Both the position numbers and the translations under genes were made by a program. This document shows, one piece after another, positions 11,985 to 28,043 of a DNA stretch of 35,787 nucleotides. The notes under the pieces are model-generated. The model saw only the letters and a list, made by a program, of their open reading frames with translations, was not told where the DNA came from and searched no databases. Every line of letters starts with the position of its first letter. The stretch's first letter is position 1. The DNA is from Gemmatimonadota bacterium (GTDB lineage Bacteria > Gemmatimonadota > Gemmatimonadetes > JACCXV01 > JAHWKZ01), in assembly GCA_035698825.1 (NCBI GenBank), contig DASSBK010000221.1, positions 1 to 35,787 on the forward strand. The letters are read 5' to 3'.

Positions 11985-12228
11985 CTCCGGCGGCGTCGTC
12001 GAACGCCGCATGGCGGGGCTCACCGTCCGGATCGATCGCCTCCTCTGCGTGGGCTTCGGAGACTGTATCGACGAGGATCCCGAGTCCTTCGAGCTGGACG
12101 GCGAGGGCGTGGCGGCCTTCCGCGATGCGGGCGGGGTCGACCGCGAGCGGATCGTGCGCGCCTGCGCCGCATGCCCGGTGGACGCCCTCACCGTCCTCGA
12201 CGGGGATGGAAGGCAGCTGGCGCCGTGA
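11977..12228 (+). CDS. Single-cluster ferredoxin, probably [3Fe-4S]
   Basis: IDRLLCVGFGDC...P..F.L...CAACPVDAL; overlaps both neighbouring genes. Confidence 0.8.
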   Translation: MSDSGGVVERRMAGLTVRIDRLLCVGFGDCIDEDPESFELDGEGVAAFRDAGGVDRERIVRACAACPVDALTVLDGDGRQLAP

Positions 12229-13564: not shown

Positions 13565-13582
13565 CGCGCGGGTGGAAGTCGT

Positions 13583-13611
13583 TTGACACGTTCCCCCACC
13601 GTTTTTATATA
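13583..13611 (+). promoter_or_regulatory. Possible sigma70-type promoter for the USP-to-cox transcription unit
   Basis: Perfect TTGACA at 13583-13588 and an AT-rich TTTATATA about 16-17 bp downstream in otherwise GC-rich DNA. The -10 element is imperfect. Confidence 0.45.
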
Positions 13612-13670
13612 GGGGCGTCGCACAGGCAGGAACCGCCCTTGCAGTCGATTTCCCTTCGAAATCGGGTGGC

Positions 13671-15764
13671 ATGTATCGAGAGATCCTCGTACCGGTGGAC
13701 AACTCCGAGCACTCCGACTGGGCCGTCGACCGCGCGATCGAGATCTGCCGCCGCTCGGGCGGCCGCGTCACCGGCAACCACGTCTACGCCGCCCGCCTCC
13801 ACGACGTCCGCTTCCGCCAGCTCGAGACCGGCCTCCCCGCACAGTTCCAGACCCCCGACGAGATCAAGCGCCAGCGGAAGATCCACGACAAGCTGATCGA
13901 GAAGGGCCTGCAGCTGATCTCCGACAGCTTCCTCGACCAGGTCGAGAAGCGCTGCGCGGCCGTGGGGGTGCCGGTGACGCGGCAACTCCTCGAGGGGATC
14001 AACTACGAGGAGCTGGTGCGCGAGGCGAACCGGGGCGAGGGCCGGCTTCCGAGCCTGATCGGCTTCGACCCCAACATCGCCGACAAGTACGACGGTGGCG
14101 CCACGGTGCGCGGCGACGTGCGCCTGGGGGAGGACGGCAGGATCATCGCCGAGGAAGAGGACGCCGACGAGAAGCTCGCGGGCAGCTCGGGCAGGAGCTA
14201 CGACCTGGTGGCGATCGGGGCGCACGGCCTCGGCAGGCAGCCCCTGAGCCAGCTGGGCGGGGTGGTGGCGCGCGCGATCCGAGGCATCGAGAAGGACGTC
14301 CTGATCGTGCGGGACGACCGCCCGCTCGAAGGCGGTCGCTTCCTCGTCTGCGTGGACGGCTCGGCCTACTGCTACAAGGCGATGCGCGTGGCGCTGGAGA
14401 TGGCGCGGGAATTCGGCGCGAAGCTCTACGTGGCGAGCGCGTTCGACGTCGAATACCACCACGTCGTCTTTCACAACATCAAGGACGTCCTCTCGGTCCA
14501 GGCCTCGAAGGTGTTCAAGTTCGAGGAGCAGGAGGAGCTCCACAACAACATCATCGACAAGGGCCTCCTGCGGCTCTGTCAGGCGAACCTCAAGCGCGCC
14601 GAGGTCATGGCCGCTGAGTATCCCGACATCGCGATCGAGACGCAGATCCTGATCGGCAAGCCGTTCCAGGTCGTCCTCCAGTGGGCGGAGGAGATCGAGC
14701 CCTCCCTGCTCGTGGTCGCGCGCCACGGGAGCCATCGCATCGACGGGACGGATCTGGGGTCCCAGGCGGACAACCTGAGCCGCATCGCGACGGTGAACAC
14801 GCTGCTGGTAGGCACCACCGCGGTCCATCCCGAGGAGATCCCGTGGATCGAGGAGGACGGCGAGACGGGCCTCGAGTGGTCGCCGGACGCCGAGGTCCGG
14901 ATCCTGCGGGTTCCGCCGTTCGCGCTCGGCATCGCGCGCAAGGCCGTCGAGGAGTACGTGCTGGAGCGGTACGGCGCCGCGGTCGGCGCTGGAGCCGGCG
15001 GGAACGGAAACGGCAACGGAACCGTGCCTGCCGACGGGAACGGGCACGCGCCGTCGAACGGGGACGGAAGACCGCGCGGCCTGCCGACCGTCACCGGCGA
15101 GCGGCTGGACGAGGCGATCCAGAAGCTCCTGCCGACCCACATGCAGCTCATCATGGGAATCGGCACGGCCGAGGAGCTCGCGCTGGCCGAGATCAAGGCC
15201 GAGGAGGCGATGAAGCGGACGCTCGTCGAGGGCAGCGACGTGGACGACGCTCCCGCGGTGCGCATGGTGACGGCGAAGTGTCCGTACACGGGGCACGTGC
15301 AGGAGCGGGAGTGGACGGAGAAGGACCCGGTCGTGTGGACGGGAGAAGCGTTCGAGCGACTGCGTCTGGTGCCGCTCATCGCGCGGCCGCTGGCCCGGAA
15401 CACGGTCGAGCGCTTCGCCCGCGATCACGCCATGTGGCGGATCACGACCCGGGTGATGGACGAGAACAAGCAGGCGATGATCGAGGCCGACGAGTTCGAC
15501 GTCGACACGATGCTGGTGATGTTCAAGGAGCTCCAGACCAAACAGCTCAGGGCCGCCGCGGAGGGCGTGGACGGACTGACGCCCGAGATGCGCCGATTCA
15601 TCGACGAGGCGAAGGCCGCCGGCGTCACTCGCTGCCCCATCCGGGACATCGAGAAGCAGATCGACAAGTGCCCGGTCGATTTCAAGGCCGCCACGCCCGC
15701 CGAGGCCAAGGCGGCCGTCGAGGCCTTCCTGAATTCCGCCGCAGCCGCGGAGGACGCCCCATAG
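13671..15764 (+). CDS. Tandem universal stress protein (USP) domain protein with two PCP_red-like modules and three Cys-Pro motifs
   Basis: USP motifs ILVPVDNSEHS...DLVAIGAHG...DVLIVR and FLVCVDGS...LLVVARHG...LGSQA. PCP_red-like LEWSPDAE..RVPPF and VVWTGEAFERLRLVP. Motifs KCPY, RCPI and KCPVDF. Confidence 0.8.
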   Translation: MYREILVPVDNSEHSDWAVDRAIEICRRSGGRVTGNHVYAARLHDVRFRQLETGLPAQFQTPDEIKRQRKIHDKLIEKGLQLISDSFLDQVEKRCAAVGVPVTRQLLEGINYEELVREANRGEGRLPSLIGFDPNIADKYDGGATVRGDVRLGEDGRIIAEEEDADEKLAGSSGRSYDLVAIGAHGLGRQPLSQLGGVVARAIRGIEKDVLIVRDDRPLEGGRFLVCVDGSAYCYKAMRVALEMAREFGAKLYVASAFDVEYHHVVFHNIKDVLSVQASKVFKFEEQEELHNNIIDKGLLRLCQANLKRAEVMAAEYPDIAIETQILIGKPFQVVLQWAEEIEPSLLVVARHGSHRIDGTDLGSQADNLSRIATVNTLLVGTTAVHPEEIPWIEEDGETGLEWSPDAEVRILRVPPFALGIARKAVEEYVLERYGAAVGAGAGGNGNGNGTVPADGNGHAPSNGDGRPRGLPTVTGERLDEAIQKLLPTHMQLIMGIGTAEELALAEIKAEEAMKRTLVEGSDVDDAPAVRMVTAKCPYTGHVQEREWTEKDPVVWTGEAFERLRLVPLIARPLARNTVERFARDHAMWRITTRVMDENKQAMIEADEFDVDTMLVMFKELQTKQLRAAAEGVDGLTPEMRRFIDEAKAAGVTRCPIRDIEKQIDKCPVDFKAATPAEAKAAVEAFLNSAAAAEDAP

Positions 15765-15765
15765 G

Positions 15766-17136
15766 GTGAGCGCGACACCGCCATTCGGGGCCGTGTCGGC
15801 GGATCGGGCCGCGCCGCGCAGGGACTGGGAAACGGACGTCGCGGTGCGCGCGGCGGGACCGGAGTTCGTGCCGCACGTCGTCGCCTGGAACCTGACCCGC
15901 CGCTGCAACCTCGAGTGCGCTCACTGCTACATCGCGGCGGGCGCCTGGCACGCCGCCGCGGAGGAGATGTCGACCGCGGACTGCCTGAGGGTCGTGGACG
16001 AGATCCTCGCGGTGAGCCCCGCCCCGATGCTGATCCTGAGCGGCGGTGAGCCCTTGCTTCGCGACGACCTGGAGACGATCGCCCGGCGGGCCGCCGACGG
16101 GGGCGCGACGGTGGTCGTGGGAACGAACGGCACGCGCCTCACGCCGGCCCGCATCGACTCGCTGAAGGCGGCGGGCGTCCGTGGCGTGGCGGTCTCGATC
16201 GACAGCCTCGACGGCGATTACCACGACCGCTTCCGCCACGGTGCCGGATCGCTGGACGAAACGCTGGCCGCGATCGAGCGGCTGCGCGAGGCGCGGCTCG
16301 ATTTCGTGGTCCAGACCACCGTGACGCGCGGCAACCGCCACGAGATCGCGCGCCTCGTGGCCTGGGCGGCGGAGAAGGGCGCGGTCTCGTTCAACTGCTA
16401 CTTCGTTGTGGCCACCGGTCGCGCGTCCGGGATGCGCGGGCTCTCGCCTCGCGAGAACGACGAGGTCCTGGCCGAGCTGGTGGCGCTGGGGAAGGCGTAT
16501 CGGGGCCGGATGATGGTGCGCTCGAAGTGCCAGCCCCAGATCATGCGCCACGCGTATGCCGGCGATCCGGAATCGGGACTCCTCGACTACGCCACGCGTT
16601 GCCCGTGCGGCGTTCAGTACTGCCGCATCACGCCCGACGGAAAGGTCACGCCCTGCCCCTACATGCCGGTCGAGGCCGGAGATCTGGCGAGCGCGAGCTT
16701 CGGAGAGATCTGGCGCGAGTCGCGGGTCTTCCGCGAGCTCCGCGCGACGGAGCTCGGCGGACGCTGCGGACGATGCGAGTTCCGGATCGTGTGCGGGGGC
16801 TGCCGGGCGCGCGCCTACGCGGAGGAGGGGGACTGGCTGGCGGAGGACCCCGCCTGCTCGTACGAGCCGACCGGACGGGTCCCGGTCGTGGAGCCGCGGC
16901 TCGTGGCCCATGGCGCGCCGGCGGAGCGGACGCTTGCGTGGAGCGCGGCGGCCCGGGAGCGGATGGGCCGCGTCCCCGGCTTCGTGCGCGCCGTCGTGAC
17001 CGCCCGCGTGGAGAAATACGCCGCGGAACGGGGATACCCAATCGTCACCGAAGACGTGATCGACGAGGTGCGCTCGGCGCTGCCGATCGACTTCGCCAAG
17101 AGGAAGCCGTTCTTCCTCGGGAAGGACCCGTCGTGA
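15766..17136 (+). CDS. Radical SAM/SPASM protein of the NirJ/AhbC/AhbD type with C-terminal PCP_red-like module
   Basis: VAWNLTRRCNLECAHCY, SGGEPLLRDD, GTNG, SIDS; SPASM CPCG..YC..PCP...CGRCEFRIVCGGCRARA...DPAC; tail LAWSAAARERMGRVPGFVR. Confidence 0.85.
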   Translation: MSATPPFGAVSADRAAPRRDWETDVAVRAAGPEFVPHVVAWNLTRRCNLECAHCYIAAGAWHAAAEEMSTADCLRVVDEILAVSPAPMLILSGGEPLLRDDLETIARRAADGGATVVVGTNGTRLTPARIDSLKAAGVRGVAVSIDSLDGDYHDRFRHGAGSLDETLAAIERLREARLDFVVQTTVTRGNRHEIARLVAWAAEKGAVSFNCYFVVATGRASGMRGLSPRENDEVLAELVALGKAYRGRMMVRSKCQPQIMRHAYAGDPESGLLDYATRCPCGVQYCRITPDGKVTPCPYMPVEAGDLASASFGEIWRESRVFRELRATELGGRCGRCEFRIVCGGCRARAYAEEGDWLAEDPACSYEPTGRVPVVEPRLVAHGAPAERTLAWSAAARERMGRVPGFVRAVVTARVEKYAAERGYPIVTEDVIDEVRSALPIDFAKRKPFFLGKDPS

Positions 17137-18887
17137 CCCGGCGCCGGCTCGGCACGGCCGCGACGTGCGTCGCGTCGCTGGCGCTGGTGCTCGTGGCGGT
17201 CCACGTGGCGGGCGCGCAGGAGCCGGCGGTCGTCGGGCCGCGCGAGTACGGCTCGTTCCCGTGGATCGGCAGCCGGACCGCCGTCTGGATCGCGGCCGAG
17301 GTGCATCTCATGTTCGCCGCCTTCGTCCTCGGCGTGCCGATTTTCGCGGTCGCGGCCGAAGGCATCGGGATCTTCGGCGGGGACGAGCGCTACGATCGCC
17401 TGTCCAAGGAGTTCACGCGGCTCCTCCTCATCGCTTACAGCGCAACCGCGATGTGGGGTGCCGTCCTGGTCTTCTTCCTGACCACGCTCTACCCGCGGTT
17501 CTGGGCCCACATGACGGAGATCTTCGAGGTCTCGATGTGGATCTACGTGGGTCTGTTCTTCGTCGAATCATTCACGCTCTATCTCTACTACTACGGCTGG
17601 GACCGCTGGAAGCACGGGCGCGCGAAGATCGGGCACTGGACGCTGGGGATCCTGCTCAACCTCTGGGGCACCGCGGTCCTGTTCATCGCCGACAGCTGGC
17701 TCACGTACATGATGAGCCCGCCGGCGACAGTCACGCCCGACACCTCGCCGGCCATGGTCCAGTTCTGGAGCGCCTTCGCCAACGCCACCTGGATGCCGAT
17801 CAACATCCATCGGCTGATCGCCAACGTGGTTTTCGGCGGCTCGGTGGTGGCGGCCTATGCCGGCTACCGCTTCCTCTCCTCGCGCACGGACGAGGAGCGC
17901 GCGCACTACGACTGGATGGGCTACGTCGGCAACCTGATCGCCATCGGCGCCCTGATCGTGCTGCCCTTCGCCGGCTACTACCTGGGCCGCGAGATCTACG
18001 AGTACAACCAGCAGATGGGCATCACGATGATGGGCGGCTTCATGTCCTGGCTGTGGATCATCCAGGCGTTCCTGATCGGGGTCCTGTTCCTGGCGGGCAA
18101 CTACTACCTCTGGGTGGGGATGGGACGGATTCCGGGAGCGGAGCGCTTCCTACCCTACACGAAATGGATGCTGCTGGTCCTGATCATCGGCGTGATCGTG
18201 TGGTCGACGCCGCACACGATGATCGCCGACAGGGCCGAGCTCGAGGCGATGGGCGGCTCTCACCATCCGTTCCTCGGCGTCCTGGGCGTCATGAGCGCCA
18301 AGAACACCGCCGTCAACCTCATGATCCTGACGACGTTCCTTTCGTTTCTGCTGTACCGCCGGGCGAACCGGCGACCGGTCGTGTCGTGGACGCGGACGGG
18401 AACGATCCTCCAGGCCGGGCTGTTCATGATCGCGGCCGCGGTGGTCCTCTTCTACGGAGTGTACGGCTACTTCGTGAGCGCGATCGTCCGGATCGGGTTC
18501 AGCGTGTATCAGGTGCTGGCGGTCCTGGCCACGATCGTGGGGGTGATGGCGATCGACGTGGCGATGCTGCGGGGGTCGGAATCGCGCGGTGCGATCCGCT
18601 GGGGCCAGATGCCGCCGCGCTCCCAGTACGCGCTGTTCGTCCTGGTCGTCACGTTCACCTGGCTCATGGGCCTGATGGGGTTCGCGCGGAGCGGCATCCG
18701 CCAGCACTGGCACGTGTGGGAGGTCATGCGGGACACGAGCGAATGGGCCGCGACTCCCGCGCTGGGATACGCGGCGCAGATCATCAGCGTCTGCGTCCTC
18801 ATCTTCCTGGGGCTGATCTCGTTCATCTTCTGGCTGGGCGGGCTGGTCGAGAAGCCCCAGCTCGTCCCCAAGTCCGGAGACCGCTGA
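17133..18887 (+). CDS. CydA-like ('cytochrome bd-like') multipass membrane protein
   Basis: CydA-type N-terminal half: VHLMFAAFVLG, ERYDRLSK, FFVES...YYYGWDR, GHW, YMMSP, IHRLIA. C-terminal MGFARSGIRQHW resembles CydA GRQPW. About 13 hydrophobic segments. Confidence 0.75.
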   Translation: MTRRRLGTAATCVASLALVLVAVHVAGAQEPAVVGPREYGSFPWIGSRTAVWIAAEVHLMFAAFVLGVPIFAVAAEGIGIFGGDERYDRLSKEFTRLLLIAYSATAMWGAVLVFFLTTLYPRFWAHMTEIFEVSMWIYVGLFFVESFTLYLYYYGWDRWKHGRAKIGHWTLGILLNLWGTAVLFIADSWLTYMMSPPATVTPDTSPAMVQFWSAFANATWMPINIHRLIANVVFGGSVVAAYAGYRFLSSRTDEERAHYDWMGYVGNLIAIGALIVLPFAGYYLGREIYEYNQQMGITMMGGFMSWLWIIQAFLIGVLFLAGNYYLWVGMGRIPGAERFLPYTKWMLLVLIIGVIVWSTPHTMIADRAELEAMGGSHHPFLGVLGVMSAKNTAVNLMILTTFLSFLLYRRANRRPVVSWTRTGTILQAGLFMIAAAVVLFYGVYGYFVSAIVRIGFSVYQVLAVLATIVGVMAIDVAMLRGSESRGAIRWGQMPPRSQYALFVLVVTFTWLMGLMGFARSGIRQHWHVWEVMRDTSEWAATPALGYAAQIISVCVLIFLGLISFIFWLGGLVEKPQLVPKSGDR

Positions 18888-19687
18888 TGTGGGGCACGAA
18901 CCTCCGGGTCCTCGCCGTCGTGCTGGGGACCGTCGCGGCTTACACGCTGCTGGCCAACGCGATCCCGCAGGTCGAGTCGGAGGTCCCCGAGGAGCTGACG
19001 TTCACCGGCGACGTGAGCCCCGAGCAGCTGATCGAGGCCGGGGAGGAGCTGTTCAACGGGGCCGGCGGATGCACGGCCTGCCACGGGCTCGGCACGCGGG
19101 CGCCGAACCTGCTGACCGATCAGGGCGGACTGGGCGCGATCGGCGCGCGCTGCGGACAACGCGTCGAGGGCGAGGACTGCAAGGCCTATCTGCACCAGTC
19201 GATGGTCGATCCGAACGCGTACGTGGTGGAGGGCTTCCAGCCGATCATGCCGGACATGTCGCGCACGCTGTCGGAAGCGCAGATCTGGTCGATGATCGCA
19301 TTTCTGCAGAGCCAGGGCGGGGAGGTAACCGTCACCGCCGCCGATCTGCAGGCGGCGGCCGAAACGGAGCCCGGCGCGGCGGCGGGGACGGCGGCCACGG
19401 CCGGTACCGGCCCCAGCGCGACCACCGACCCCGTGGCCCTCATCCAGGAGCTCCAGTGCCTCGCCTGCCACAAGCTGGGCGCGGAGGGGCAGGAGGTGGG
19501 GCCGCACTTCGACGGCATGGGCTCGCGTCTGTCGCCCGACGAGATCCGGCAGGCGATCCTCGATCCCGCGGCCTCGGTCTCGCCGGGCTTCGAGCAGTTC
19601 GCCGGGGTGATGCCGCCGAACTTCGGCTCGCGGCTGACGGCCTCGCAGCTCGAGGCGATCGTCGGCTTCCTGGCGGCGCGGAAGTGA
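18887..19687 (+). CDS. Membrane-anchored diheme c-type cytochrome
   Basis: N-terminal TM segment, CTACH and CLACH each followed by an MP motif (IMPD, VMPP). TGATG coupling. Confidence 0.88.
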   Translation: MWGTNLRVLAVVLGTVAAYTLLANAIPQVESEVPEELTFTGDVSPEQLIEAGEELFNGAGGCTACHGLGTRAPNLLTDQGGLGAIGARCGQRVEGEDCKAYLHQSMVDPNAYVVEGFQPIMPDMSRTLSEAQIWSMIAFLQSQGGEVTVTAADLQAAAETEPGAAAGTAATAGTGPSATTDPVALIQELQCLACHKLGAEGQEVGPHFDGMGSRLSPDEIRQAILDPAASVSPGFEQFAGVMPPNFGSRLTASQLEAIVGFLAARK

Positions 19688-19697
19688 GGCATACGCC

Positions 19698-20489
19698 GTG
19701 AGGCTCCTGCGCCATCCGTTCTGGCAGGCGGTCGCGATCCTGGTGATCGCCTACCTCCTGATCACCTACGGGATCCCGTACCTGCCCGCGCTGATTGGCA
19801 TGGAGAGCGCCCCGGTTCCCGGATCGGTCGTGCTGCAGTACATGGCGACCGTGCTGGTGGGGGTCCTGATCTGGGTCAGCGACAGCGACGAGCGGTGGAA
19901 CCGATTCCTGGAGCCGATCCGATCGACGATGGTCGACGGCAACAGGCGCTGGCTGCGGCTCGGGCTCATGGTCGCGATCCCGCTCCTGGTCGGGCTGCTC
20001 GCCTTCCGTCAGGTGCGGCAGACGGTCGCCGCACCGCCCGCCCTGCGCTCGATCCACCCCGCGCCCCCCTCGTCGATCACGTTCCGCGGTCGGCCGCTGA
20101 ACCTCGCGGGGCTCGACAACCCGCTCCGGGGGGACGGCTCGATCACGGAAGACTACGAGGAGGGCAAGCGGGTCTACTATCAGAATTGCCTCCCCTGCCA
20201 CGGCGATGGGCTCGACGGGCGCGGCCATTTCGCGCACGGCTTCACACCGGCCCCGCTGCCGTTCAACGACTCCGGCACGATCCCGCAGCTGACCGAGAGC
20301 TTCGTATTCTGGCGGATCGCCAAGGGCGGCCCGGGCCTCCCCAAGGAGGGAACGCCCTGGAACAGCGCGATGCCGGTCTGGGAGGAGATCCTCACCGAAG
20401 AGGAGATCTGGTCGGTCATCGTCTTCCTCTACGAGCAGACCGGCGCGACTCCCCGCACGTGGGCAGAGGCCGGGGAGGGGGCTGAATGA
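19698..20489 (+). CDS. Membrane-bound monoheme c-type cytochrome with three N-terminal TM helices
   Basis: Three hydrophobic segments, then YYQNCLPCHG and SAMPVW. Confidence 0.85.
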   Translation: MRLLRHPFWQAVAILVIAYLLITYGIPYLPALIGMESAPVPGSVVLQYMATVLVGVLIWVSDSDERWNRFLEPIRSTMVDGNRRWLRLGLMVAIPLLVGLLAFRQVRQTVAAPPALRSIHPAPPSSITFRGRPLNLAGLDNPLRGDGSITEDYEEGKRVYYQNCLPCHGDGLDGRGHFAHGFTPAPLPFNDSGTIPQLTESFVFWRIAKGGPGLPKEGTPWNSAMPVWEEILTEEEIWSVIVFLYEQTGATPRTWAEAGEGAE

Positions 20490-22129
20490 GGTTTCCGGCG
20501 CGCATGGCTTGGCCCCTGCTGGCGGCCCTCTTCGTGGCGCCCGCGTCCGTGACCGCGCAGGACTCCCAGACCGGGAAGGCGGAGTACGACCGGTGGTGTG
20601 CCGGCTGTCACGGCGTGGACGGCAAGGGGGATGGCCCGGGTGCCGGGACGATGATGCCGCGGCCGCGCGACTTCACGACCGGCCGCTACCAGATCCGCTC
20701 GACGCCGAGCGGCGCGCTCCCCACGGACGAGGACCTCACGAGTGTGATCCTGGACGGGATGCCCGGCACCGCGATGCCCGGATGGCGGGACCACTTCGGC
20801 GAGCGCGAGGTGCAGGAACTGGTCGCCCACATCAAGTCGTTCTCGCCGTTCTTCGAGAGCCAGCCGGCCCCCGAGCCGGTGGAGATCGTGTCGGCTCCCG
20901 GAGCGGACGATGCGGCGCTCGCGGAGGGTCGGGAGTTCTACGAGAAGATCGAGTGCAACAAGTGCCACGGCGAGGCGGGCAGAGGGGATGGTCCGTCGGC
21001 GCCCACGCTCGAGGACGACGACGACCGGCCGATACGCGCCGCCGATCTCACCGAGAACTGGTTCTTCAACGGCGGGGGGTCGGTGGAGGAGATCCACGAG
21101 CGTCTGGTCACGGGCCTCAACGGAACGCCGATGCCTTCGTTCCAGGACCTGATCGCCGCCGAGTTCATGACCGAGGAGCAGTTATGGCACGTGGCGCAGT
21201 ACGTCCGGAGCCTGGCGCCCGAGGAGCCCCCGGTCGTGCGGGAGGTCGTTCGCGCCGGGCGGGTGGAGGGCGATCTGCCGGCGTCGGTGGACGACGCCGC
21301 ATGGGAGACCGCCGAGCGCTTCTACGTGCCGCTCGTCGGACAGGTAATCGCCCGCCCGCGCTGGTTCTCGCCCACCGTGGACGGCGTATGGGTCCAGGCG
21401 CTTCACAACGGTCGAGAGCTGACGATGCGCCTCGTGTGGCACGACCCGTCGGAAAGCCCCGATCCGGACTGGGACGAGTGGCGGGACAAGGTGCTCGCGC
21501 TGATGGCGTTCGCCGACGCGCCGGTCGCGGAGTCGCCCGATTCGGCCGCCGCCGAGGCACCGGCGGAGTCCGCGCCGGGGGGCGGGGCCGATACGACGGC
21601 GGTCGCCGCCGCCTCGCCGGGGGCACCCTTCCCGGACGCGTTGGTGGTTCAGTTCCCGCGCTCCATCCCCGAGGGCATGGAGCGGCCCTATTTCCTCATG
21701 GGCGACGATCGCGATCCGGTGTATCTCTGGCGCTGGGAAAGCGGACGGCAGGCGAGCGAGATGCTGGCGCGCGGGCTGGCGAGGTACGAGCCTCTCGGCG
21801 GCGCCCAGGCCGGAGCCGTGACGGCCGAGGCCGTGTTCGACCAGGGCGAGTGGCGACTCATGCTGCGCCGGACGATGGACGCGGAAGGAGTCGCGGATCG
21901 CCTCGGCTTCGAGCCAGGGCGCGCGATCCCGATGGCGCTGTTCGCGTGGGACGGGTCCAACGGAGAGACGGGAACGCAAGGGGCGATCGGAAGCTGGTAT
22001 TTCCTGTACCTGGATCAGCCGACGGCGAGCACCGTGTACGTGACGCCGGTCCTGGCGACGCTGTTGACTGCGGCGCTGGGCGTGGTGTTGGTCAGGCGGG
22101 CGCAGCGGCGCGCGCGAAACGATGCGTAG
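20486..22129 (+). CDS. Diheme cytochrome c fused to an ethylbenzene-dehydrogenase-gamma (EbdC/DOMON)-like domain, with C-terminal membrane anchor
   Basis: Signal peptide; CAGCHG...PRPRDF...GMPGTAMP; CNKCHG...GTPMP; then VQALHNG..L.WHDP, DALVVQFP, PYFLMG, GEW...R, AWDG; C-terminal TM followed by RR. Confidence 0.82.
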   Translation: MRFPARMAWPLLAALFVAPASVTAQDSQTGKAEYDRWCAGCHGVDGKGDGPGAGTMMPRPRDFTTGRYQIRSTPSGALPTDEDLTSVILDGMPGTAMPGWRDHFGEREVQELVAHIKSFSPFFESQPAPEPVEIVSAPGADDAALAEGREFYEKIECNKCHGEAGRGDGPSAPTLEDDDDRPIRAADLTENWFFNGGGSVEEIHERLVTGLNGTPMPSFQDLIAAEFMTEEQLWHVAQYVRSLAPEEPPVVREVVRAGRVEGDLPASVDDAAWETAERFYVPLVGQVIARPRWFSPTVDGVWVQALHNGRELTMRLVWHDPSESPDPDWDEWRDKVLALMAFADAPVAESPDSAAAEAPAESAPGGGADTTAVAAASPGAPFPDALVVQFPRSIPEGMERPYFLMGDDRDPVYLWRWESGRQASEMLARGLARYEPLGGAQAGAVTAEAVFDQGEWRLMLRRTMDAEGVADRLGFEPGRAIPMALFAWDGSNGETGTQGAIGSWYFLYLDQPTASTVYVTPVLATLLTAALGVVLVRRAQRRARNDA

Positions 22130-22166
22130 GGTTGTCGCGAACCGAATCAAACCAAGGAGGACGCTG

Positions 22167-23021
22167 ATGAGACATTCGATCGAGGCGCTGGCCGCGAGCT
22201 TGCTGGTCGTCGCGCTAGCCTGCGGCGGTGGCGGCGAGGAGGCGGACACCGGGGGAGACGTAGCGGTGGACGAGGAGGCGGGGCCCGCCGTCAGCCCGGA
22301 CAGCGCGGCGACGATTACGGGCGTCGTGAACTTCACCGGCACCGCGCCGGCCGGGGAGCCCATCGACATGAGCGAAGAGCCGACGTGCGCGGAACAGCAC
22401 ACCGAGCCGCCCATGAGAATGCAGGTCGTTGCGGCGGACGGAAAGCTCGCCAACGTCTTCGTGTACGTGAAGGAGGGGTTGGGTGACCGCCGATTCCCGG
22501 TCTCGCAGGAAGGGGTCACGATCGACCAGCGGGGCTGCGAGTATCATCCGCACATCATCGCCATCCAGACGGGACAGGATCTGATCGTCAAGAATTCCGA
22601 CGGGATCCTGCACAACATCAACACGCAGCCGTCCGTGAATCAGGGCTTCAACGTGAGCCAGCCGGTGGCGATGGAGACCACCAAGACGTTCACGTCCCCC
22701 GAGGTGATGATTCCCGTGAAATGCGACGTGCACGGGTGGATGGAGGCCTTCATCGGCGTGCAGGACCATCCGTACATGGCGGTGAGCGGCGCGGACGGAA
22801 CGTTCACGCTCGAGAACCTGCCGCCGGGCACGTATACCATCGAGGCCTGGCACGAGCTGTACGGCACCCAGACACAGACCGTCACCGTCGCGGCCCAGGG
22901 GACGGGTCAGGTCACGTTCGACTACTCGAGCGATATGGCGGGCAACCCGGTGCCGATGGGGGATCCGATCGACCTCCACGAGCACGACGGGCACGTCCGG
23001 GTCGCGTCCGCGGGCCGGTAG
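22167..23021 (+). CDS. Lipoprotein with cupredoxin-like domain and carboxypeptidase-regulatory-like beta-sandwich
   Basis: AAGGAGG SD; lipobox ALA-C; IDQRGCEYHP, NSDGILHN and KCDVHGWM (type-1 Cu-like His/Cys/His/Met); GTFTLENLPPGTYTIEAWHE. Confidence 0.8.
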   Translation: MRHSIEALAASLLVVALACGGGGEEADTGGDVAVDEEAGPAVSPDSAATITGVVNFTGTAPAGEPIDMSEEPTCAEQHTEPPMRMQVVAADGKLANVFVYVKEGLGDRRFPVSQEGVTIDQRGCEYHPHIIAIQTGQDLIVKNSDGILHNINTQPSVNQGFNVSQPVAMETTKTFTSPEVMIPVKCDVHGWMEAFIGVQDHPYMAVSGADGTFTLENLPPGTYTIEAWHELYGTQTQTVTVAAQGTGQVTFDYSSDMAGNPVPMGDPIDLHEHDGHVRVASAGR

Positions 23022-23048
23022 CGTGCGCGCCACGGCGAGGGGGGAGTA

Positions 23049-23840
23049 ATGGACTGGGGCTGGTTGATGTCGGAGCCGGCTTCGACGTTCGGCTCCAAGA
23101 TCGACTCCATCTACTATGTGATCCTGGTGATCACAGGGGTGATCTTCGTGCTCGTGGAGGGCGCGCTGATCGTGTTCCTGTTGAAGTACCGGCACCGCGA
23201 GGGTCGGCGGGCGGAATACTCCCATGGACACACCAAGCTGGAGGCGGTGTGGACGATCATCCCCTTCATCCTCGTCATGGCGATCGCCTGGATGAGCATG
23301 GATGTGTGGCTCGAAGCGAAGATCGCGGATGGCCATGCGCCGGCGGACGCACTGCCGCTGCGCGTGACGGCGAAGCAGTTCGAGTGGAATGTCACCTATC
23401 CCGGGCCCGACGAGAAGCTCGACACCCCCGACGACTTCGTGAAGAGGAACCAGCTCCACCTTCCTGTGGGCAGGGCCGTGAGGGTCGACCTGGCCAGCGA
23501 GGACGTGATCCACTCGTTCTTCCTGCCTGTGTTCCGGGTGAAGCAGGACGCGGTACCCGGCATGGTGATTCCGGTGTGGTTCGAGGCGACGAAGGCGGGT
23601 GAGTACCCGCTGGGCTGCGCCGAGCTGTGCGGTCTCGGCCACTACCGGATGCGCGGCTCGGTCACCGTGCACGAGGCGGCGGCGTTCGACTCGTGGGTCG
23701 CTGAGGAGGGATCGGCGCCGGCCGCGGAGACGCCGGCGCCCGCGGACACCACCGGTGGCGGGGCCGAGGCAGCCGAAGCCGCCGCGGCCCCGGGCCACGA
23801 TCATCAGCAACCATCCAGCGAAGGAGAGGGGCGGGCATGA
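23049..23840 (+). CDS. coxB: Cytochrome c oxidase subunit II (CuA, no fused cytochrome c)
   Basis: Two TM helices, LEAVWTIIP, QFEW, DVIHSF and CAELCGLGHYRM. Confidence 0.93.
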   Translation: MDWGWLMSEPASTFGSKIDSIYYVILVITGVIFVLVEGALIVFLLKYRHREGRRAEYSHGHTKLEAVWTIIPFILVMAIAWMSMDVWLEAKIADGHAPADALPLRVTAKQFEWNVTYPGPDEKLDTPDDFVKRNQLHLPVGRAVRVDLASEDVIHSFFLPVFRVKQDAVPGMVIPVWFEATKAGEYPLGCAELCGLGHYRMRGSVTVHEAAAFDSWVAEEGSAPAAETPAPADTTGGGAEAAEAAAAPGHDHQQPSSEGEGRA

Positions 23841-25627
23841 GCACGGTGCCGATCGAAATCGGGCATCCGTCGGTTCAGCACTGGGCGGAGCCCGGCCACG
23901 CAGACCACAGGTCGTTCCTGCGGAAGTACATCTTCTCCACCGATCACAAGGTGATCGGGTGTCAGTTCCTGATCATGAGCCTCACGTTCCTGCTGATCGG
24001 CGGGTTGCTGGCGATGCTCATCCGCTGGCAGCTGGGCTGGCCGGGAACGGCGGTTCCGGGCGGCGCGATCCTCGGGGATGCGAAAGCTCCCGGGGGGATC
24101 ATCCTGCCCGAGTTCTACAACTCCCTGGTCACCATGCACGGCACGATCATGATCTTCTTCGCGATCATGCCGCTACTCGTGGGCGTGTTCGGCAACTGGC
24201 TGATCCCTCTCCACGTCGGTGCGGCCGACATGGCCTTCCCGCGGCTCAACATGGCGTCGTTCTGGACCGCCCTTCCCGCCGGGGTGATCATGCTGAGCAG
24301 CTTCTTCGTCACCGGGGGATCGGCGGCGGCCGGCTGGACGGCCTACGCGCCCCTCTCCGCGAGCCCCGAGCTGAGCGGCGTCTACATGGGGCAGAAGCTC
24401 TGGTGTCTCAGCCTGATCGTGCTCGGATTCTCATCGCTGATGGGCGCGGTCAACTACATCACGACGATCGTGAACATGCGCGCTCCGGGCATGAAGTGGA
24501 TGCGCCTGCCGCTTCCGATCTGGGCGCTGTTCATTACCGCGATCCTGGTCCTGCTGGCGATTCCGGTCTTGACCGGAGCGCTGATCCTGCTCCTCTTCGA
24601 TCAGACGATCGGGACGACGTTCTTCCTGCCGAAGGACGGCGGACAGCCGCTCATGTGGCAGCACCTGTTCTGGTACTTCGGGCACCCCGAGGTCTACATC
24701 CTGATCCTGCCGGCCATGGGAATCGCCTCCGAGGTCATCTCCAATGGCTCGCGGAAGCCGATCTTCGGCTACAAGTTCATGGTCTACGCGATCGTCGCGA
24801 TCGCGTTCCTCGGCTGGATCGTCTGGGGGCACCACATGTTCCAGAGCGGCATGAACCCGCTCCTCGGCGGCGCGTTCATGACCTCGACGATGATCATCGC
24901 GGTGCCCTCGGCGATCAAGGTGTTCAACTGGCTGGGAACCATCTACCGAGGAGACATCCACTTCCACGTGCCGATGCTGAACGCGCTCGCGTTCGTGGCG
25001 ATGTTCGTGATCGGCGGGCTGTCGGGCGTGTTCATGGCGTCGACGCCGGTCGACATCTACATCCACGACACGTACTTCATCGTGGCGCACATCCACTACG
25101 TGCTCTTCGGCGGGAGCCTGTTCGCGATCTTCGCGGGGATCTACTTCTGGTATCCCAAGTTCTTCGGGCGGATGCTGAATCCGACCTTGGGGAAGATCCA
25201 TTTCGCGTTGACCTTCGTGTTCTACAACGCGGTCTTCTTCCCGATGCACAACCTGGGGCTGGACGGCATGATGCGCCGGATCTACGACCCCAACCAGTAC
25301 GAATACCTGGCGCAGTACCAGCCGATGAACACGTTCATCTCCGTGTCCGCGCTGCTGCTGGGGGCATCCCAGCTCATCTTCCTGTTCAACTTCCTGTGGT
25401 CCCTGCGCGGGGGGAAGAAGGCGCCGGCGAACCCCTGGAACTCGAATTCCCTCGAGTGGACGCTGCCGTCGCCGCCGCCCCACGGGAACTTCCCGACCAT
25501 GCCCACCGTCTACCGGGGGCCCTACGAGTACAGCGTGCCGGGACGGGAGGCCGACTACTGGCCGCAGAGCGAACCGCCCGGAGAGCCGGAGCGAAAGGCC
25601 GCCCATCGGGAGGAGGTGCACGCATGA
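23837..25627 (+). CDS. coxA: Cytochrome c oxidase subunit I, A1-type
   Basis: TMHGTIM, DMAFPRLN, GHPEVY, WGHHMF, PSAIK, HDTYFIVAHIHY, GMMRR. Confidence 0.96.
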   Translation: MSTVPIEIGHPSVQHWAEPGHADHRSFLRKYIFSTDHKVIGCQFLIMSLTFLLIGGLLAMLIRWQLGWPGTAVPGGAILGDAKAPGGIILPEFYNSLVTMHGTIMIFFAIMPLLVGVFGNWLIPLHVGAADMAFPRLNMASFWTALPAGVIMLSSFFVTGGSAAAGWTAYAPLSASPELSGVYMGQKLWCLSLIVLGFSSLMGAVNYITTIVNMRAPGMKWMRLPLPIWALFITAILVLLAIPVLTGALILLLFDQTIGTTFFLPKDGGQPLMWQHLFWYFGHPEVYILILPAMGIASEVISNGSRKPIFGYKFMVYAIVAIAFLGWIVWGHHMFQSGMNPLLGGAFMTSTMIIAVPSAIKVFNWLGTIYRGDIHFHVPMLNALAFVAMFVIGGLSGVFMASTPVDIYIHDTYFIVAHIHYVLFGGSLFAIFAGIYFWYPKFFGRMLNPTLGKIHFALTFVFYNAVFFPMHNLGLDGMMRRIYDPNQYEYLAQYQPMNTFISVSALLLGASQLIFLFNFLWSLRGGKKAPANPWNSNSLEWTLPSPPPHGNFPTMPTVYRGPYEYSVPGREADYWPQSEPPGEPERKAAHREEVHA

Positions 25628-26244
25628 GCCACGGCGCCGCGATCTCGGCCACGCACCCGATGGAGGGGATGAAGGTCTACAACCTCAAGCTCGGGATGTG
25701 GGTGTTCCTGCTGTCGGAGGTGATGTTCTTCTCGAGCCTGATCGGGGCCTACATCATCCTGCGGTTCGCGCACCCCGAGCAGTGGGCGGAGCCCAATGTG
25801 GTCCTCAACGTTCCGCTCACGGGTTTCAACACCTTCATGCTGATCTGCAGCTCGGTGACGATGGTCAAGGCCTTCGCCGCGATCGAGCACGGGGATCAGG
25901 CGGGCCTCAGGAAGTGGCTGATCGCGACGATCATCCTGGGCTCGGCGTTCGTCAGCATCCAGGTCTTCGAGTACATCAAGCTCGCCCACGAGGGGTTCGT
26001 TCCCGTCGCGGCGAGATATGCTGCCGAGGGAGGTCCGCTGTACGGTTCGACGTTCTACACCATGACGGGCTTCCACGGCGCCCACGTCACGATCGGGGTG
26101 CTGGCGCTGATCTTCACGACCATCAAGGCGTTCCGGGGGAAATACTCGGCGACGGACTACGGCGGAGTGGAGATCATGGGACTCTACTGGCACTTCGTGG
26201 ATCTGGTGTGGATCATTCTTTTCACAATCGTCTACCTGATTTGA
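25624..26244 (+). CDS. coxC: Cytochrome c oxidase subunit III (short form)
   Basis: GMWVFLLSEVMFF, TGFHGAHV, GLYWHFVDLVW; ATGA overlap with coxA. Confidence 0.93.
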   Translation: MSHGAAISATHPMEGMKVYNLKLGMWVFLLSEVMFFSSLIGAYIILRFAHPEQWAEPNVVLNVPLTGFNTFMLICSSVTMVKAFAAIEHGDQAGLRKWLIATIILGSAFVSIQVFEYIKLAHEGFVPVAARYAAEGGPLYGSTFYTMTGFHGAHVTIGVLALIFTTIKAFRGKYSATDYGGVEIMGLYWHFVDLVWIILFTIVYLI

Positions 26245-26248
26245 TCAG

Positions 26249-26368
26249 GGCGCGTGAAAACGGGCCATCTGCTGCGTTGCGCTCCTCGTGCCGGCCTGCG
26301 GCGTACACTCCGGTACGCCTCGGCCGTCCCTCGTCGCGCGCCTTGCATCTGACCCGTTTTGACGCGCC
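26249..26368. repeat. ~120-bp long-hairpin intergenic element, copy B
   Basis: Terminal inverted repeat GGCGCGTGAAAACGGG/CCCGTTTTGACGCGCC with 1 mismatch; homologous to 2742-2860. Confidence 0.85.
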
Positions 26369-26414
26369 TCCAGCAGCGTCAACCTCACATCGGTCCTGAG
26401 CGGGGAGGAGCTTG

Positions 26415-26708
26415 ATGGCGGACGAAACGCACGCGGTGACAGGGAGGAAGAAGCCGAACTACTACCTGGTGTGGCTGTACCTGCTGATCCTGACGATCGC
26501 CGAGGTGGCGGTCGCGTTCATGTCACACCTGCCCGAGACGTGGCTCATCCTGCTGCTGCTGTTCCTGGCGGTGTGGAAGGCGGCCTTGGTGGCGATGTAC
26601 TACATGCACCTCAGGTTCGAGCCGCCGAGGCTCGTGATGATGGTGCTGGCCCCTATCCCGCTCGCCATCCTGATCACGGCCACCGTCGTCACGATGGAGA
26701 TCCGCTGA
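26415..26708 (+). CDS. Cytochrome c oxidase subunit IV family protein
   Basis: GGAGGAG SD; LTIAEV...KAALVAMYYMHLRFE; three TM helices. Confidence 0.87.
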   Translation: MADETHAVTGRKKPNYYLVWLYLLILTIAEVAVAFMSHLPETWLILLLLFLAVWKAALVAMYYMHLRFEPPRLVMMVLAPIPLAILITATVVTMEIR

Positions 26709-26724
26709 TCCGGGGCGGCAGTCG

Positions 26725-26862
26725 ATGAACCACGACGTCATGACCGGCATGCTGTGGGCGGCGCTCTTCATGGTGGGCGTGCCTCTGGCCATCGGCGTAG
26801 GCGTCCTGGTCGCAGTGCTCCGGCGGCGCCGCGGAGACGACAGCCCGGCGCCCGGCGCCTGA
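26725..26862 (+). CDS. Putative 45-aa single-pass membrane protein (absent from the ORF track)
   Basis: MNHDVMTGMLWAALFMVGVPLAIGVGVLVAVLRRRRGDDSPAPGA*: hydrophobic helix plus Arg stop-transfer, GC3-rich codons. Weak SD. Confidence 0.55.
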   Translation: MNHDVMTGMLWAALFMVGVPLAIGVGVLVAVLRRRRGDDSPAPGA

Positions 26863-26870
26863 GCAGGTCG

Positions 26871-27107
26871 TTGCCGGGCTCCTCGCTCATCCCCTTCCAC
26901 AGGGTTCTGATCGCGACCGCGATCGTCTTTTGCGCGGGCTTGTCGTGGTGGATGTTCTCGATGAGCGGGGAGGGCGGCTCGACGCCCTTCGGGCTGCTCG
27001 GCGCGGTCTTCGCGGTCCTCGCCGTGGTGCTGGCGATCTACCTGTGGAATCTTCGACGCGTGCTGGGCTACCGGGACGAGCGGGGCGAACGCGGCCCCCG
27101 CCGCTGA
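26871..27107 (+). CDS. Small two-TM membrane protein
   Basis: IPFHRVLIATAIVFCAGLSWW...GAVFAVLAVVLAIYLWNLRR; TTG start inferred. Confidence 0.6.
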   Translation: MPGSSLIPFHRVLIATAIVFCAGLSWWMFSMSGEGGSTPFGLLGAVFAVLAVVLAIYLWNLRRVLGYRDERGERGPRR

Positions 27108-27124
27108 GCCCGCTCGAGCTCCAA

Positions 27125-27673
27125 CTAGTCCTCGTTCCAGATCCTGTTGAAGTGGGTCAGGATCCGGGGATGTCGATACCAGAGGTAGGCCGCCATCGCC
27201 CCCGCCGCCAGAAGATTGGCGACCGCCACGCCCCAGAAAGCGATACCGCCGAGCAGGGGCTCCCCCATCGCCAGCAGGAAGATCTGGAATGCCGTCTCGA
27301 AGAAGACGAACAGGAACACGAGCGCAATGCCCAGCGGCGGGACCCGCTCGATCTCGCTCACGAGGAACGACGCCACCAGGCCGACACCGATGAACGCGGC
27401 ATGGTGGACCAGCGTATACGCCGCCACCATTCCGGGGTCGACGGCCCGATGACCCGCCGCCGCATGCGTCCCCTTGAAGAGTACTGTTCCGAGCAGGGAA
27501 GGCGTCCACAGAGGGACATGCTGGATCGTGTCCAGAAGCAGGAACCACGCGGCCACGACTCCGGCACCGATGAGGCCGGTGATGAACCCCTCCATCAGGG
27601 TCGTCGAGACCGACAGTGGGGGGACGGCGTGCGAAGCGGCGGCCGTGCCTGGATGTTCGTGCTCGTTGCCCAT
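27125..27673 (-). CDS. Four-TM hypothetical membrane protein, last gene of the caa3 operon
   Basis: ATG 27673 with AAGGA SD; four hydrophobic helices; motifs TPSLLG, YTLVHH and ANLLAA. Confidence 0.72.
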   Translation of the reverse strand: MGNEHEHPGTAAASHAVPPLSVSTTLMEGFITGLIGAGVVAAWFLLLDTIQHVPLWTPSLLGTVLFKGTHAAAGHRAVDPGMVAAYTLVHHAAFIGVGLVASFLVSEIERVPPLGIALVFLFVFFETAFQIFLLAMGEPLLGGIAFWGVAVANLLAAGAMAAYLWYRHPRILTHFNRIWNED

Positions 27674-27713
27674 TCCTTCTCCTGCTCGGTTCAAGAACGA
27701 CGGACTTCCAACG

Positions 27714-28034
27714 CTACATGTGGGCGCCCGATCCGATAGCGCCGAACAACAGCATCATCGCCAGAATGATCACGGTTGCCACCACGATTCCGCCCGCGAA
27801 CACGGTTGTAAGGATCGGCCGGTCGAACTTGAGGTGCATGAAGAACATCGCGACCAGTATGAACTTCGCCGCAGACAGGACGAGCAGGAACGGTACGATG
27901 ACCGAGTGGAGCAGCGGCACGTAGAAGACCGCGACCTCGAGCATCGTGAGGATCCCCAGGACCACCGCGATCAGCCAGTACGTGCTCTTGCTCGCGTGGC
28001 CCTTCGACGATTCCGATACGGCGTGCTCGGCCAT
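27714..28034 (-). CDS. Cytochrome c oxidase subunit IV family protein (caa3-type)
   Basis: LTMLEV...SAAKFILVAMFFMHLKFD. Confidence 0.88.
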   Translation of the reverse strand: MAEHAVSESSKGHASKSTYWLIAVVLGILTMLEVAVFYVPLLHSVIVPFLLVLSAAKFILVAMFFMHLKFDRPILTTVFAGGIVVATVIILAMMLLFGAIGSGAHM

Positions 28035-28043
28035 GATCTCCCG

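Follow-up and report, generated by a model that had tools for sequence, protein, structure and literature searches.

The window analysed here, the whole 35.8-kb stretch of DNA that makes up contig C221 of a 2.78-Mb, 96% complete Gemmatimonadota metagenome-assembled genome (MAG), encodes a CydA-like membrane protein that has no CydB partner and is immediately followed by three cytochromes c, a blue-copper-type lipoprotein and an aa3-type cytochrome c oxidase. Here we show that this protein has the complete CydA fold and retains the counterparts of conserved CydA histidines, that its nine-gene cluster is colinear across related Gemmatimonadota and co-inherited with a radical S-adenosylmethionine (SAM) gene, and that its first four genes match, in sequence and order, a module known from nitrite- and manganese-oxidizing bacteria. 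We propose that the four-gene module is the electron-input feeder of the aa3 oxidase encoded behind it, with quinol the more likely source of electrons, a proposal that we regard as evenly poised between right and wrong. Two further readings, in which the module is itself a terminal oxidase or a reversible link to the quinone pool, are weighed where the evidence touches them. In all genome-wide counts, the MAG is the genome referred to as the protein's own.

What the bd-like proteins, the OR-N family, do has long been missing from our picture of the bioenergetics of nitrite oxidizers, anammox bacteria and manganese oxidizers. As set out in three reports, a cluster of bd-like_3, two cytochromes c and alt_NxrC_2 in Nitrospira moscoviensis is duplicated nearby, kept in Nitrospina and anammox bacteria, counted among the 40 most transcribed genes and proposed to anchor nitrite oxidoreductase (NXR) and connect it with the quinone pool (Mundinger et al. 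2019, PMC6606698); the TO_1 cluster of Ca. Manganitrophus reaches the 98th expression percentile with complex IV weakly expressed and has been interpreted as a terminal oxidase (Yu et al. 2021, bioRxiv 10.1101/2021.11.15.468770); and the OR-N family is described as having no quinol site, keeping His19 and lying in operons with alternative donors, with 14 helices in OR-N1/N2 and often no second CydA-like gene in OR-N2 (Murali, Gennis and Hemp 2021, bioRxiv 10.1101/2021.01.16.426971).

The CydA-like protein is a weak pass for Pfam Cyt_bd_oxida_I (E 6.2e-20, 71.6 bits against a cut-off of 26.2, residues 47-567) and the sole PF01654 match in its own genome. It carries a signal peptide and about 13-14 transmembrane (TM) helices, and no CxxCH motif. 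No match to cydB (PF02322) was found in that 96%-complete genome; cydB is present in 20 of 61 sampled genomes of the phylum, on other contigs where it co-occurs with the module. An AlphaFold (AF2) model built from a 45-sequence alignment (predicted local distance difference test score (pLDDT) 87.7, predicted TM-score 0.86) has only CydA chains among its ten best Foldseek matches, and it superposes on the CydA chains of five organisms with VIA Z of 32-35.5 and root mean squared deviations of 3.5-4.3 Å over 342-367 residues. The superposition covers model residues 40-578 and each CydA chain whole, so that none of the nine CydA helices is missing and about five more are inserted. In a quick maximum-likelihood tree, a branch with 100% support in the Shimodaira-Hasegawa-like approximate likelihood-ratio test (SH-aLRT) splits six canonical CydA proteins from all 37 bd-like rows, and the window protein falls within an 11-row Gemmatimonadota clade, also with 100% SH-aLRT. 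The suggestion of the first-pass annotation that this is a non-canonical CydA is thus borne out by its separation in the tree, by the lack of cydB in its own genome and by the lack of a quinol loop, described below. With no quinol site, no heme c motif, this number of TM helices and kin in Nitrospirota, it is of the OR-N type. The gene is publicly annotated as 'cytochrome ubiquinol oxidase subunit I', a name that misleads metabolic reconstructions of Gemmatimonadota.

In profile alignments with CydA of Escherichia coli (6rko_A) and Geobacillus (5doq_A), H58 of the CydA-like protein falls on His19/His21 and H226 on His186, Y138 stands at the position of Glu99/Glu101 and E145 at that of Glu107/108. 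H58 is kept in 17 of 19 diverse family members; members of both the Gemmatimonadota and the Nitrospirota type share H58, H226 and Y138, and E145 is not conserved among them. Further conserved residues are E76, which is invariant, Y150, Y152, W156, K165, H168, M193, W220, R227, M295, H361, E369, H378, K390 and H527. M295 and E369 might be the counterparts of Met393 and Glu445, which are guesses, as the sequence profiles do not align beyond TM6.

This residue pattern also speaks to a second reading, in which the module would itself be a terminal oxidase that keeps the di-heme O2 site and is fed by the c hemes and the cupredoxin rather than by quinol, in a cbb3-like wiring, so that the operon would hold two oxidases sharing donors, for example for different O2 tensions. 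The equivalents of His19 and His186 are conserved, as such an enzyme would want; E76, K165 and H168 lie towards the cytoplasmic side by the helix order of the model and could form a proton path; and the c-type domains downstream match Cytochrome_CBB3, with an anchored monoheme and a diheme cytochrome c as in cbb3 oxidases. However, a conserved Tyr replaces Glu99, the Glu107 equivalent is not kept family-wide and a CydB-like partner is lacking. Few operons encode two terminal oxidases, moreover, and a translationally coupled one would be unusual. To our knowledge no enzyme of the OR-N/bd-like family has been purified or characterized, and a literature search likewise turned up none. We consider this reading rather unlikely.

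Whatever its reaction, the CydA-like protein appears to work with cytochromes c. Its gene is followed by those of a TM-anchored diheme cytochrome c (c2a), a monoheme cytochrome c with TM helices (c1) and a diheme cytochrome c fused to an EB_dh domain (c2EB), which together hold five c-heme motifs. C164, C167, H168 and M225 of c1 are invariant in 26 sequences, as are the two CxxCH-plus-Met sets of c2EB. The first-pass annotation had tied the CydA-like protein to these cytochromes, and two observations uphold the tie. One is natural gene fusion: the 889-residue P0122 joins a CydA-like part (55% identical) to a full diheme cytochrome c (33% identical to c2a over residues 2-266), and P0133 and P0125 are partial fusions that carry half of a diheme cytochrome c at the C terminus of a CydA-like protein. 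The other is a co-fold of the CydA-like protein with c1, both entered as alignments, which scored 0.70 against 0.01 for the best control and so passed its controls; 58 of 80 solved complexes attain this mark, compared with 2 of 110 mismatched pairs. Contacts were shared to at least 54% among three runs, with a partner pLDDT of at least 76, and the predicted interface sets residues 313-381 of the CydA-like protein (TM7, TM8 and a conserved periplasmic loop with T359/P360, H361, E369 and H378) against residues 26-67 of c1, which hold TM helices. No comparable complex occurs among the solved structures that match the CydA-like model. The products of 17133-22129, that is, the CydA-like protein, c2a, c1 and c2EB, probably form one membrane complex, and the co-fold supports direct binding between the CydA-like protein and c1 within it. 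Among the CydA-like and diheme c fusions, P0162 has one CxxCH near its N terminus; seven other CydA-like representatives (P0124, P0129-P0131, P0136, P0138 and P0147) are 740-850 residues long, with large insertions.

The EB_dh part of c2EB is DOMON-like and of the NxrC/EbdC gamma-subunit type. EB_dh domains usually ligate heme b through Met or Lys; among the residues of this one there is no invariant Met or Lys, and His307 alone is invariant. The domain raises a third reading, in which the module would reversibly link high-potential periplasmic electrons to the quinone pool: a donor would dock at EB_dh, and its electrons would be split, running downhill through the cupredoxin to the aa3 oxidase and uphill to quinone at the CydA-like subunit. 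EB_dh proteins of this type receive electrons from periplasmic molybdoenzymes, going by the Pfam and NCBIfam names, and the layout resembles the rus operon of Acidithiobacillus ferrooxidans, the cupredoxin of which (AcoP) stands at rank 45 among the fold matches of the window cupredoxin. Mundinger et al. proposed a link of this kind for the cluster that accompanies NXR in nitrite oxidizers and anammox bacteria (PMC6606698). Against it, the best match to an NXR-like (type II dimethyl sulfoxide reductase) alpha subunit in the own genome reaches 64 bits against a cut-off of 985, the conserved cluster holds no periplasmic oxidoreductase gene, and the usual heme b ligands of EB_dh are not conserved. 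The DNA data sets listed as matching 16800-26700, furthermore, are soil and rhizosphere metagenomes, with no RNA data set among those listed, and no sign of lithotrophy turned up, no search aimed at lithotrophy having been made. We regard the reversible link as decidedly improbable. The core occurs without NXR and is therefore not specific to nitrite oxidation.

Relatives outside the phylum bear on what the core is. A HMMER search of the whole library with the CydA-like protein returned 1157 representatives at E <= 1e-3, 231 of them at E <= 1e-30. One full-length relative, P0159 (36% identical), has close kin that their sources name Nitrospira or Nitrospirota; an alignment of P0159 and its kin yielded 80 metagenome loci, and counts were made on the 35 Nitrospira-type loci of at least 15 kb. 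Their bd-like proteins are 46-49% identical to the CydA-like protein at 90-96% coverage. A c1-like gene (35-39% identity) follows in 35 of 35 loci and a c2EB-like gene in the same order in 34 of 35 (27-32% identity over 94-95% of the query), with a c2a-like match (24-26% identity) between them in nine; all 35 also have a further bd-like paralogue, some 5.5 kb upstream. In none of the 35 was there a match for the cupredoxin, coxB, coxA, coxC, subunit IV, the USP (universal stress protein) gene or the radical SAM enzyme. By sequence identity and gene order, the four-gene core is orthologous to the Nitrospira 'bd-like_3 / alt_NxrC_2 / two cytochromes c' cluster, hence to Manganitrophus TO_1 and the OR-N family. 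The first-pass annotation overlooked that this core had already been described from Nitrospira, Nitrospina, anammox bacteria and Manganitrophus, as a module without an assigned function (PMC6606698; bioRxiv 10.1101/2021.11.15.468770).

Within Gemmatimonadota, the core comes in a different and constant setting. At least 593 stretches in the species-genome collection hold relatives of the CydA-like locus; the synteny set consists of the best 80 of these, all from MAGs and all titled Gemmatimonadota (Gemmatimonadales, Longimicrobiales or Palauibacter) and 72-96% identical, 57 of which reach at least 8.2 kb downstream of the CydA-like gene. All nine genes from the CydA-like gene to subunit IV are colinear in 56 of these 57 loci, the exception being one (L065) in which c2a is matched only in part; a further locus that extends 8.1 kb downstream (L069) has no cupredoxin match and downstream cox genes that are only 34-50% identical. 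The CydA-like protein is the best conserved of the nine, at 72-96% identity compared with 66-92% for CoxA.

We then counted in 301 genomes spread evenly over the phylum (G182 unpublished; for ActD also G057 and G097), where tallies are descriptive rather than statistical tests because related genomes are not independent. The CydA-like gene is present in 86 of the 301 genomes and in 42 of 127 genera, mostly all-or-none by genus: it is found in 8/8 genomes of genus g5, 8/8 of g16 and 16/16 of g29, in 0/18 of g7 and 0/11 of g18, and in one of the two of g10. All 86 module genomes have a cupredoxin orthologue, and 25 further genomes hold a 40-45% identical paralogue or weaker matches. Four genomes (G060, G086, G127 and G290) also carry a second, paralogous CydA-like gene, 49-50% identical. 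At two such loci, L169 (G127:C1:2104000-2123900) and L170 (G060:C8:55000-74900), the order is c1 - c2EB - cupredoxin - cupredoxin - CydA-like - c2a - c1 - c2EB, without cox genes; the paralogous CydA-like protein (49% identity) has an insertion after about residue 440, and in G127 the paralogous module lies about 80 kb from the primary one. As this module keeps two cupredoxins without cox, the cupredoxin accompanies the module also at loci that lack a neighbouring oxidase. Linkage to cox genes, which had been expected to be conserved, therefore holds within Gemmatimonadota (56 of 57 loci) and fails family-wide, given 0 of 35 Nitrospira-type loci and the paralogous Gemmatimonadota module.

The gene between the cytochromes and coxB encodes a lipoprotein with an LA|C lipobox, the Cys of which is nearly invariant in 20 orthologues. 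Pfam detects just a C-terminal CarboxypepD_reg-like domain in it, and its sequence profile gives weak blue-copper matches against sequences from the PDB (5fc9, E 0.087; plastocyanin, E 0.26). The ligand set H164...C201-x2-H204-x2-M207 is invariant in 20 of 20 orthologues, and the AlphaFold model (pLDDT 83.3) matches amicyanin, pseudoazurin and plastocyanin by Foldseek with probability 1.00 and TM(target) of 0.55-0.79. The invariant ligands and the cupredoxin fold confirm the earlier description of the product as a type-1-copper-like lipoprotein, and we expect it to bind copper.

The oxidase downstream is A1-type, with GHPEV in COX1 (which we take to be the helix-VI Glu signature of A1-type oxidases), CuA in CoxB, COX3 and COX4_pro; CoxA, at 661.6 bits, lies just below the NCBIfam equivalog cut-off of 670.75. 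Because CoxB has a CuA motif and no CxxCH, this aa3 oxidase needs an outside donor. The window also contains a second, convergent A-family cox operon on the minus strand (27714-32196), comprising a coxB with a fused C-terminal cytochrome c (CxxCH; 30502-32196), a coxA with GHPEV (28616-30505), a coxC (28044-28616) and subunit IV (27714-28034); the two CoxA proteins of the window share 267 identical positions over 663 alignment columns. The two operons might divide the labour, with alternative complex III (ACIII) paired with the oxidase that has a cytochrome c on CoxB (caa3) and the bd-like module with the aa3 oxidase that has none.

Our proposal for the Gemmatimonadota operon brings these features together. 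The complex encoded at 17133-22129 would serve as the electron-input module of the aa3 oxidase, its c hemes passing electrons to the lipid-anchored type-1 copper protein and this in turn to the CuA of a CoxB without its own cytochrome c. The more likely source would be membrane quinol, oxidized at a non-canonical site of the CydA-like subunit, in which case the operon would by itself carry electrons all the way from quinol to O2, as a branch alongside ACIII-caa3; less probably, they would come from a periplasmic donor that docks at the EB_dh domain. We are led to this reading by the coupled operon, by the CoxB without cytochrome c, by the position of the cupredoxin between module and oxidase, and by the pattern of complex III beside cox, as complex-III-type modules are commonly encoded next to cox genes.

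The genes upstream add a possible cofactor step. A single-cluster ferredoxin gene precedes three consecutive genes whose products all bear PCP_red domains, the last of them being the radical SAM enzyme that adjoins the CydA-like gene. This enzyme scores 288 bits against each of NCBIfam NirJ2 and AhbD, for which the cut-offs are 500, and is therefore a relative of both and an equivalog of neither; enzymes of the NirJ/AhbD type act on propionate side chains of iron tetrapyrroles. In the 80 Gemmatimonadota loci, the ferredoxin is kept upstream in 56 and the C-terminal approximately 320 residues of the 12230-13564 PCP_red protein in 59, and the order USP gene, radical SAM gene, CydA-like gene is found in 59 of the 62 loci that reach upstream. 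Orthologues of the radical SAM enzyme (E <= 1e-90) occur in 86 of the 301 genomes, the same genomes that have the CydA-like gene and adjacent to it, and not in the other 215 sampled, so this is no general heme-synthesis gene of the phylum. The probable task of the cassette is to modify or insert a tetrapyrrole cofactor that the module uses, a module-specific cofactor step being the simplest reading of its co-inheritance and domain content; we found nothing relevant in the literature on PF08369 (PCP_red).

Carried to its limit, the feeder proposal would make the operon a 'respirasome operon', in which a CydA-derived, CydB-less protein, once an oxidase, has become the quinol-oxidizing centre of a complex III distinct from both bc1 and ACIII and thus of a third kind, connected with its own aa3 oxidase by five c hemes and a blue-copper lipoprotein and equipped with a non-standard heme made by the radical SAM and PCP_red proteins, and in which nitrite and manganese oxidizers run the same core in reverse. 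We consider this extended version unlikely.

Several observations weigh against the feeder proposal itself, the first group of them concerning quinol. An hhalign comparison with six canonical CydA proteins from Gemmatimonadota genomes, each encoded next to cydB, gives a probability of 98.9% (E 3.4e-17) and covers only TM1-TM6 (residues 47-293). The profile alignment ends where the canonical 'YQPVKLAAxEG' stretch starts, at which point the CydA-like protein has 'YNQQMGITMMGG'; a gapless extension puts the Lys and Glu of canonical 'QPVKLAAxE', presumably the quinol-binding residues of canonical CydA, on Met and Met. The model, too, leaves only about 10 residues between TM6 and TM7, with no long loop. 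As the alignment stops at the Q-loop and the TM6-TM7 link is this short, the canonical quinol loop is absent, and the want of a recognizable quinol site is the weak point of the feeder reading. After CydA, the best structural matches of the model are ActC of ACIII (Z 19-20, 320-332 residues) and then PsrC of polysulfide reductase (Z 15.7), both of them quinol-binding subunits; this likeness speaks for the feeder reading, but it may be a general resemblance of four-helix bundles and is only a lead.

A second group concerns what the module does elsewhere. None of the 35 Nitrospira-type loci has cox genes near the module, nor do the paralogous loci, so feeding an aa3 oxidase is not its general function; the same observation, with the cupredoxins that accompany the paralogous module, favours the view that the module is itself an oxidase. 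The OR-N family and TO_1 are indeed read as O2 reductases in the literature, and the His19 ligand of the O2-site heme is retained: the portions of the two reports cited here put the lack of a quinol site, the retention of His19 and the operons with alternative donors (bioRxiv 10.1101/2021.01.16.426971), and a TO_1 at the 98th expression percentile beside a weakly expressed complex IV (bioRxiv 10.1101/2021.11.15.468770), on that side.

The third concerns the need for a further complex III. On the short contig C190 of the own genome, the genes for ActC, ActD and a monoheme cytochrome c follow one another, and ActD was found in 288 of the 301 sampled Gemmatimonadota, including 84 of the 86 module genomes. 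The two module genomes without ActD have alternatives, namely NrfD-family fragments at two contig ends in G221 and a canonical cytochrome b (180 bits) in G185. The anticorrelation with ACIII or bc1 that the first-pass annotation had put forward for testing is therefore not borne out, and the module is not needed as complex III. In seven genomes assembled in single or few contigs (G141, G061, G199, G124, G079, G143 and G253), ActD lies about 37-45 kb from the CydA-like gene, not adjacent to it. Two candidates for a classic bc1 complex in the own genome were rejected: the sole PF00033 match is a cytochrome b fused to C-terminal 4Fe-4S-type Cys motifs (C123:14502-18494, minus strand), and the sole Rieske domain is the C terminus of a 548-residue FAD-type oxidoreductase (C194:15650-17296, minus strand). 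A 514-residue multiheme cytochrome c with many CxxCH motifs adjoins the cytochrome b/4Fe-4S fusion on C123.

The feeder proposal and its rivals matter beyond this locus. The cluster is among the most highly expressed in nitrite oxidizers, anammox bacteria and manganese oxidizers (PMC6606698; bioRxiv 10.1101/2021.11.15.468770), and its four-gene core also recurs widely in a soil phylum rich in heterotrophs, as the count of 86 genomes in 301 attests. The core module and the CydB-less bd-like family are already in print. What appears new, within the reach of our searches, is the context, namely the constant pairing with a cupredoxin and an aa3 oxidase, the radical SAM cassette inherited along with the module, the paralogous module with its cupredoxins and the natural fusions. 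The main text of Murali et al. (2021), in its available part, makes no mention of Gemmatimonadota, cupredoxins or a linkage to heme-copper oxidases, and its supplementary tables may list the phylum; we found no literature link of 'bd-like' with Gemmatimonadota or Gemmatimonadetes, and a paper on the Palauibacterales contains none of the five oxidase terms looked for. Three new constraints narrow the hypotheses for the family: cupredoxin and aa3 oxidase downstream, a co-inherited radical SAM/tetrapyrrole cassette upstream, and coexistence with ACIII.

The gene map on which the analysis rests is given in Table 1. The GC (guanine plus cytosine) content of the window is about 70%, so the window contains many spurious open reading frames (ORFs), and reading frames were settled by translation, the positions of CxxCH motifs and family matches. 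From the radical SAM gene to coxC, intergenic gaps are -8 to +27 bases, and the start of the diheme cytochrome c gene overlaps the CydA-like stop by 1 base. Only seven CxxCH motifs occur in all six frames of the window, of which five belong to c2a, c1 and c2EB, one to the second coxB and one to a non-coding frame. All elements named in the first-pass annotation are present on the plus strand; its coordinates for the diheme cytochrome c gene and coxC were wrong. ORFs 18889-19701 (as the diheme cytochrome c gene) and 25698-26399 (as coxC) are in the wrong frame, with Arg-rich products and no family match, and were rejected for the genes listed in the table. A promoter and terminator scan of 11500-28200 gave 0 promoter-like and 4 terminator-like sites, not above shuffles.

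Table 1. Genes of the conserved upstream cassette, the CydA-like module and the aa3 oxidase in the window
Feature	Position	Strand	Evidence or remark
Small ferredoxin, single-cluster 4Fe-4S	11905-12228	+	Pfam Fer4_15, E 2.3e-09; first gene of the conserved upstream cassette
Protein with C-terminal PCP_red (tetrapyrrole-binding type) domain	about 12230-13564, start uncertain	+	Pfam PCP_red, E 1.9e-14
Double USP-domain protein with PCP_red domains	13671-15764	+	Pfam Usp, 2.8e-29; PCP_red, 1.1e-14
Radical SAM/SPASM enzyme of the AhbD/NirJ2 kind (heme side-chain chemistry), C-terminal PCP_red	15766-17136	+	Pfam Radical_SAM, SPASM, PCP_red
CydA-like (OR-N type, 'bd-like') membrane protein, 584 residues	17133-18887	+	Pfam Cyt_bd_oxida_I (PF01654)
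TM-anchored diheme cytochrome c (c2a), 266 residues	18887-19687	+	Two CxxCH; Pfam Cytochrom_C, Cytochrome_CBB3
Monoheme cytochrome c with three N-terminal TM helices (c1)	19698-20489	+	One CxxCH
Periplasmic diheme cytochrome c + EB_dh + C-terminal TM anchor (c2EB, alt-NxrC-like)	20486-22129	+	Two CxxCH; Pfam Cytochrome_CBB3, Cytochrom_C, EB_dh (58.4 bits)
Lipoprotein: type-1 copper cupredoxin + CarboxypepD_reg-like beta-sandwich	22122-23021, likely start Met16 at 22167	+	Ligand set; fold; Pfam CarboxypepD_reg
coxB, cytochrome c oxidase subunit II, CuA, no fused cytochrome c	23049-23840	+	NCBIfam CoxB, 170.6 bits (cut-off 147.7)
coxA, heme-copper oxidase subunit I, A-family	23837-25627	+	Pfam COX1, 511 bits; GHPEV at residue 282
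coxC, subunit III	25624-26244	+	Pfam COX3, 8.4e-26
Prokaryotic cytochrome c oxidase subunit IV	26412-26708	+	Pfam COX4_pro, 1.3e-14

Three further genes lie near the oxidase operons. Right after subunit IV, a small membrane ORF (26754-27107, plus strand) is kept in 20 of the 80 loci and has weak matches, below cut-off, to DUF3180 and CopD. A glutamyl-tRNA reductase gene (hemA; 33683-34918, plus strand), for the first step of tetrapyrrole synthesis, lies less than 7 kb from both oxidase operons, and a tetratricopeptide repeat (TPR) protein (31703-33361) with a CcmH/CycH-type TPR match stands between the oxidase operons and hemA.

Known systems can be set beside the module. With CydAB (E. coli 6rko, Geobacillus 5doq) it shares the subunit I fold (Z 32-35.5, 3.5 Å over about 355 residues) and the His19/His186 positions, and it differs in the lack of CydB and of the Q-loop, in Tyr for Glu99, in about five extra helices, in three cytochrome c partners and in its separate clade. 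The OR-N family matches it in having the CydA fold, His19, no quinol loop, no heme c motif and about 14 TM helices, and in that a second CydA-like gene can be lacking. The Nitrospira/TO_1 cluster has the same four genes in order, no cydB, no quinol loop and about 14 TM helices; unlike there, the window genome has no NXR, and a cupredoxin, an A1-type coxBAC with subunit IV and the upstream cassette are fixed. Nitrospira loci have a second bd-like paralogue, whereas the window genome has a single copy. Like ACIII-caa3 and the actinobacterial qcrCAB-ctaCDEF genes, the locus puts a multi-heme membrane module directly beside cox genes. ACIII carries six c hemes, compared with five here, and supplies, in ActC, the second-best structural match (Z 19-20); in contrast to ACIII and bc1, the cluster holds no homologues of ActA, ActB or ActD, no Rieske protein and no cytochrome b. 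The rus operon of A. ferrooxidans (cyc2-cyc1-acoP-coxBACD-rus) likewise has cytochromes c and a membrane-bound cupredoxin directly upstream of the coxB of an aa3 oxidase, but it contains no CydA-like protein, and the window contains no outer-membrane cytochrome.

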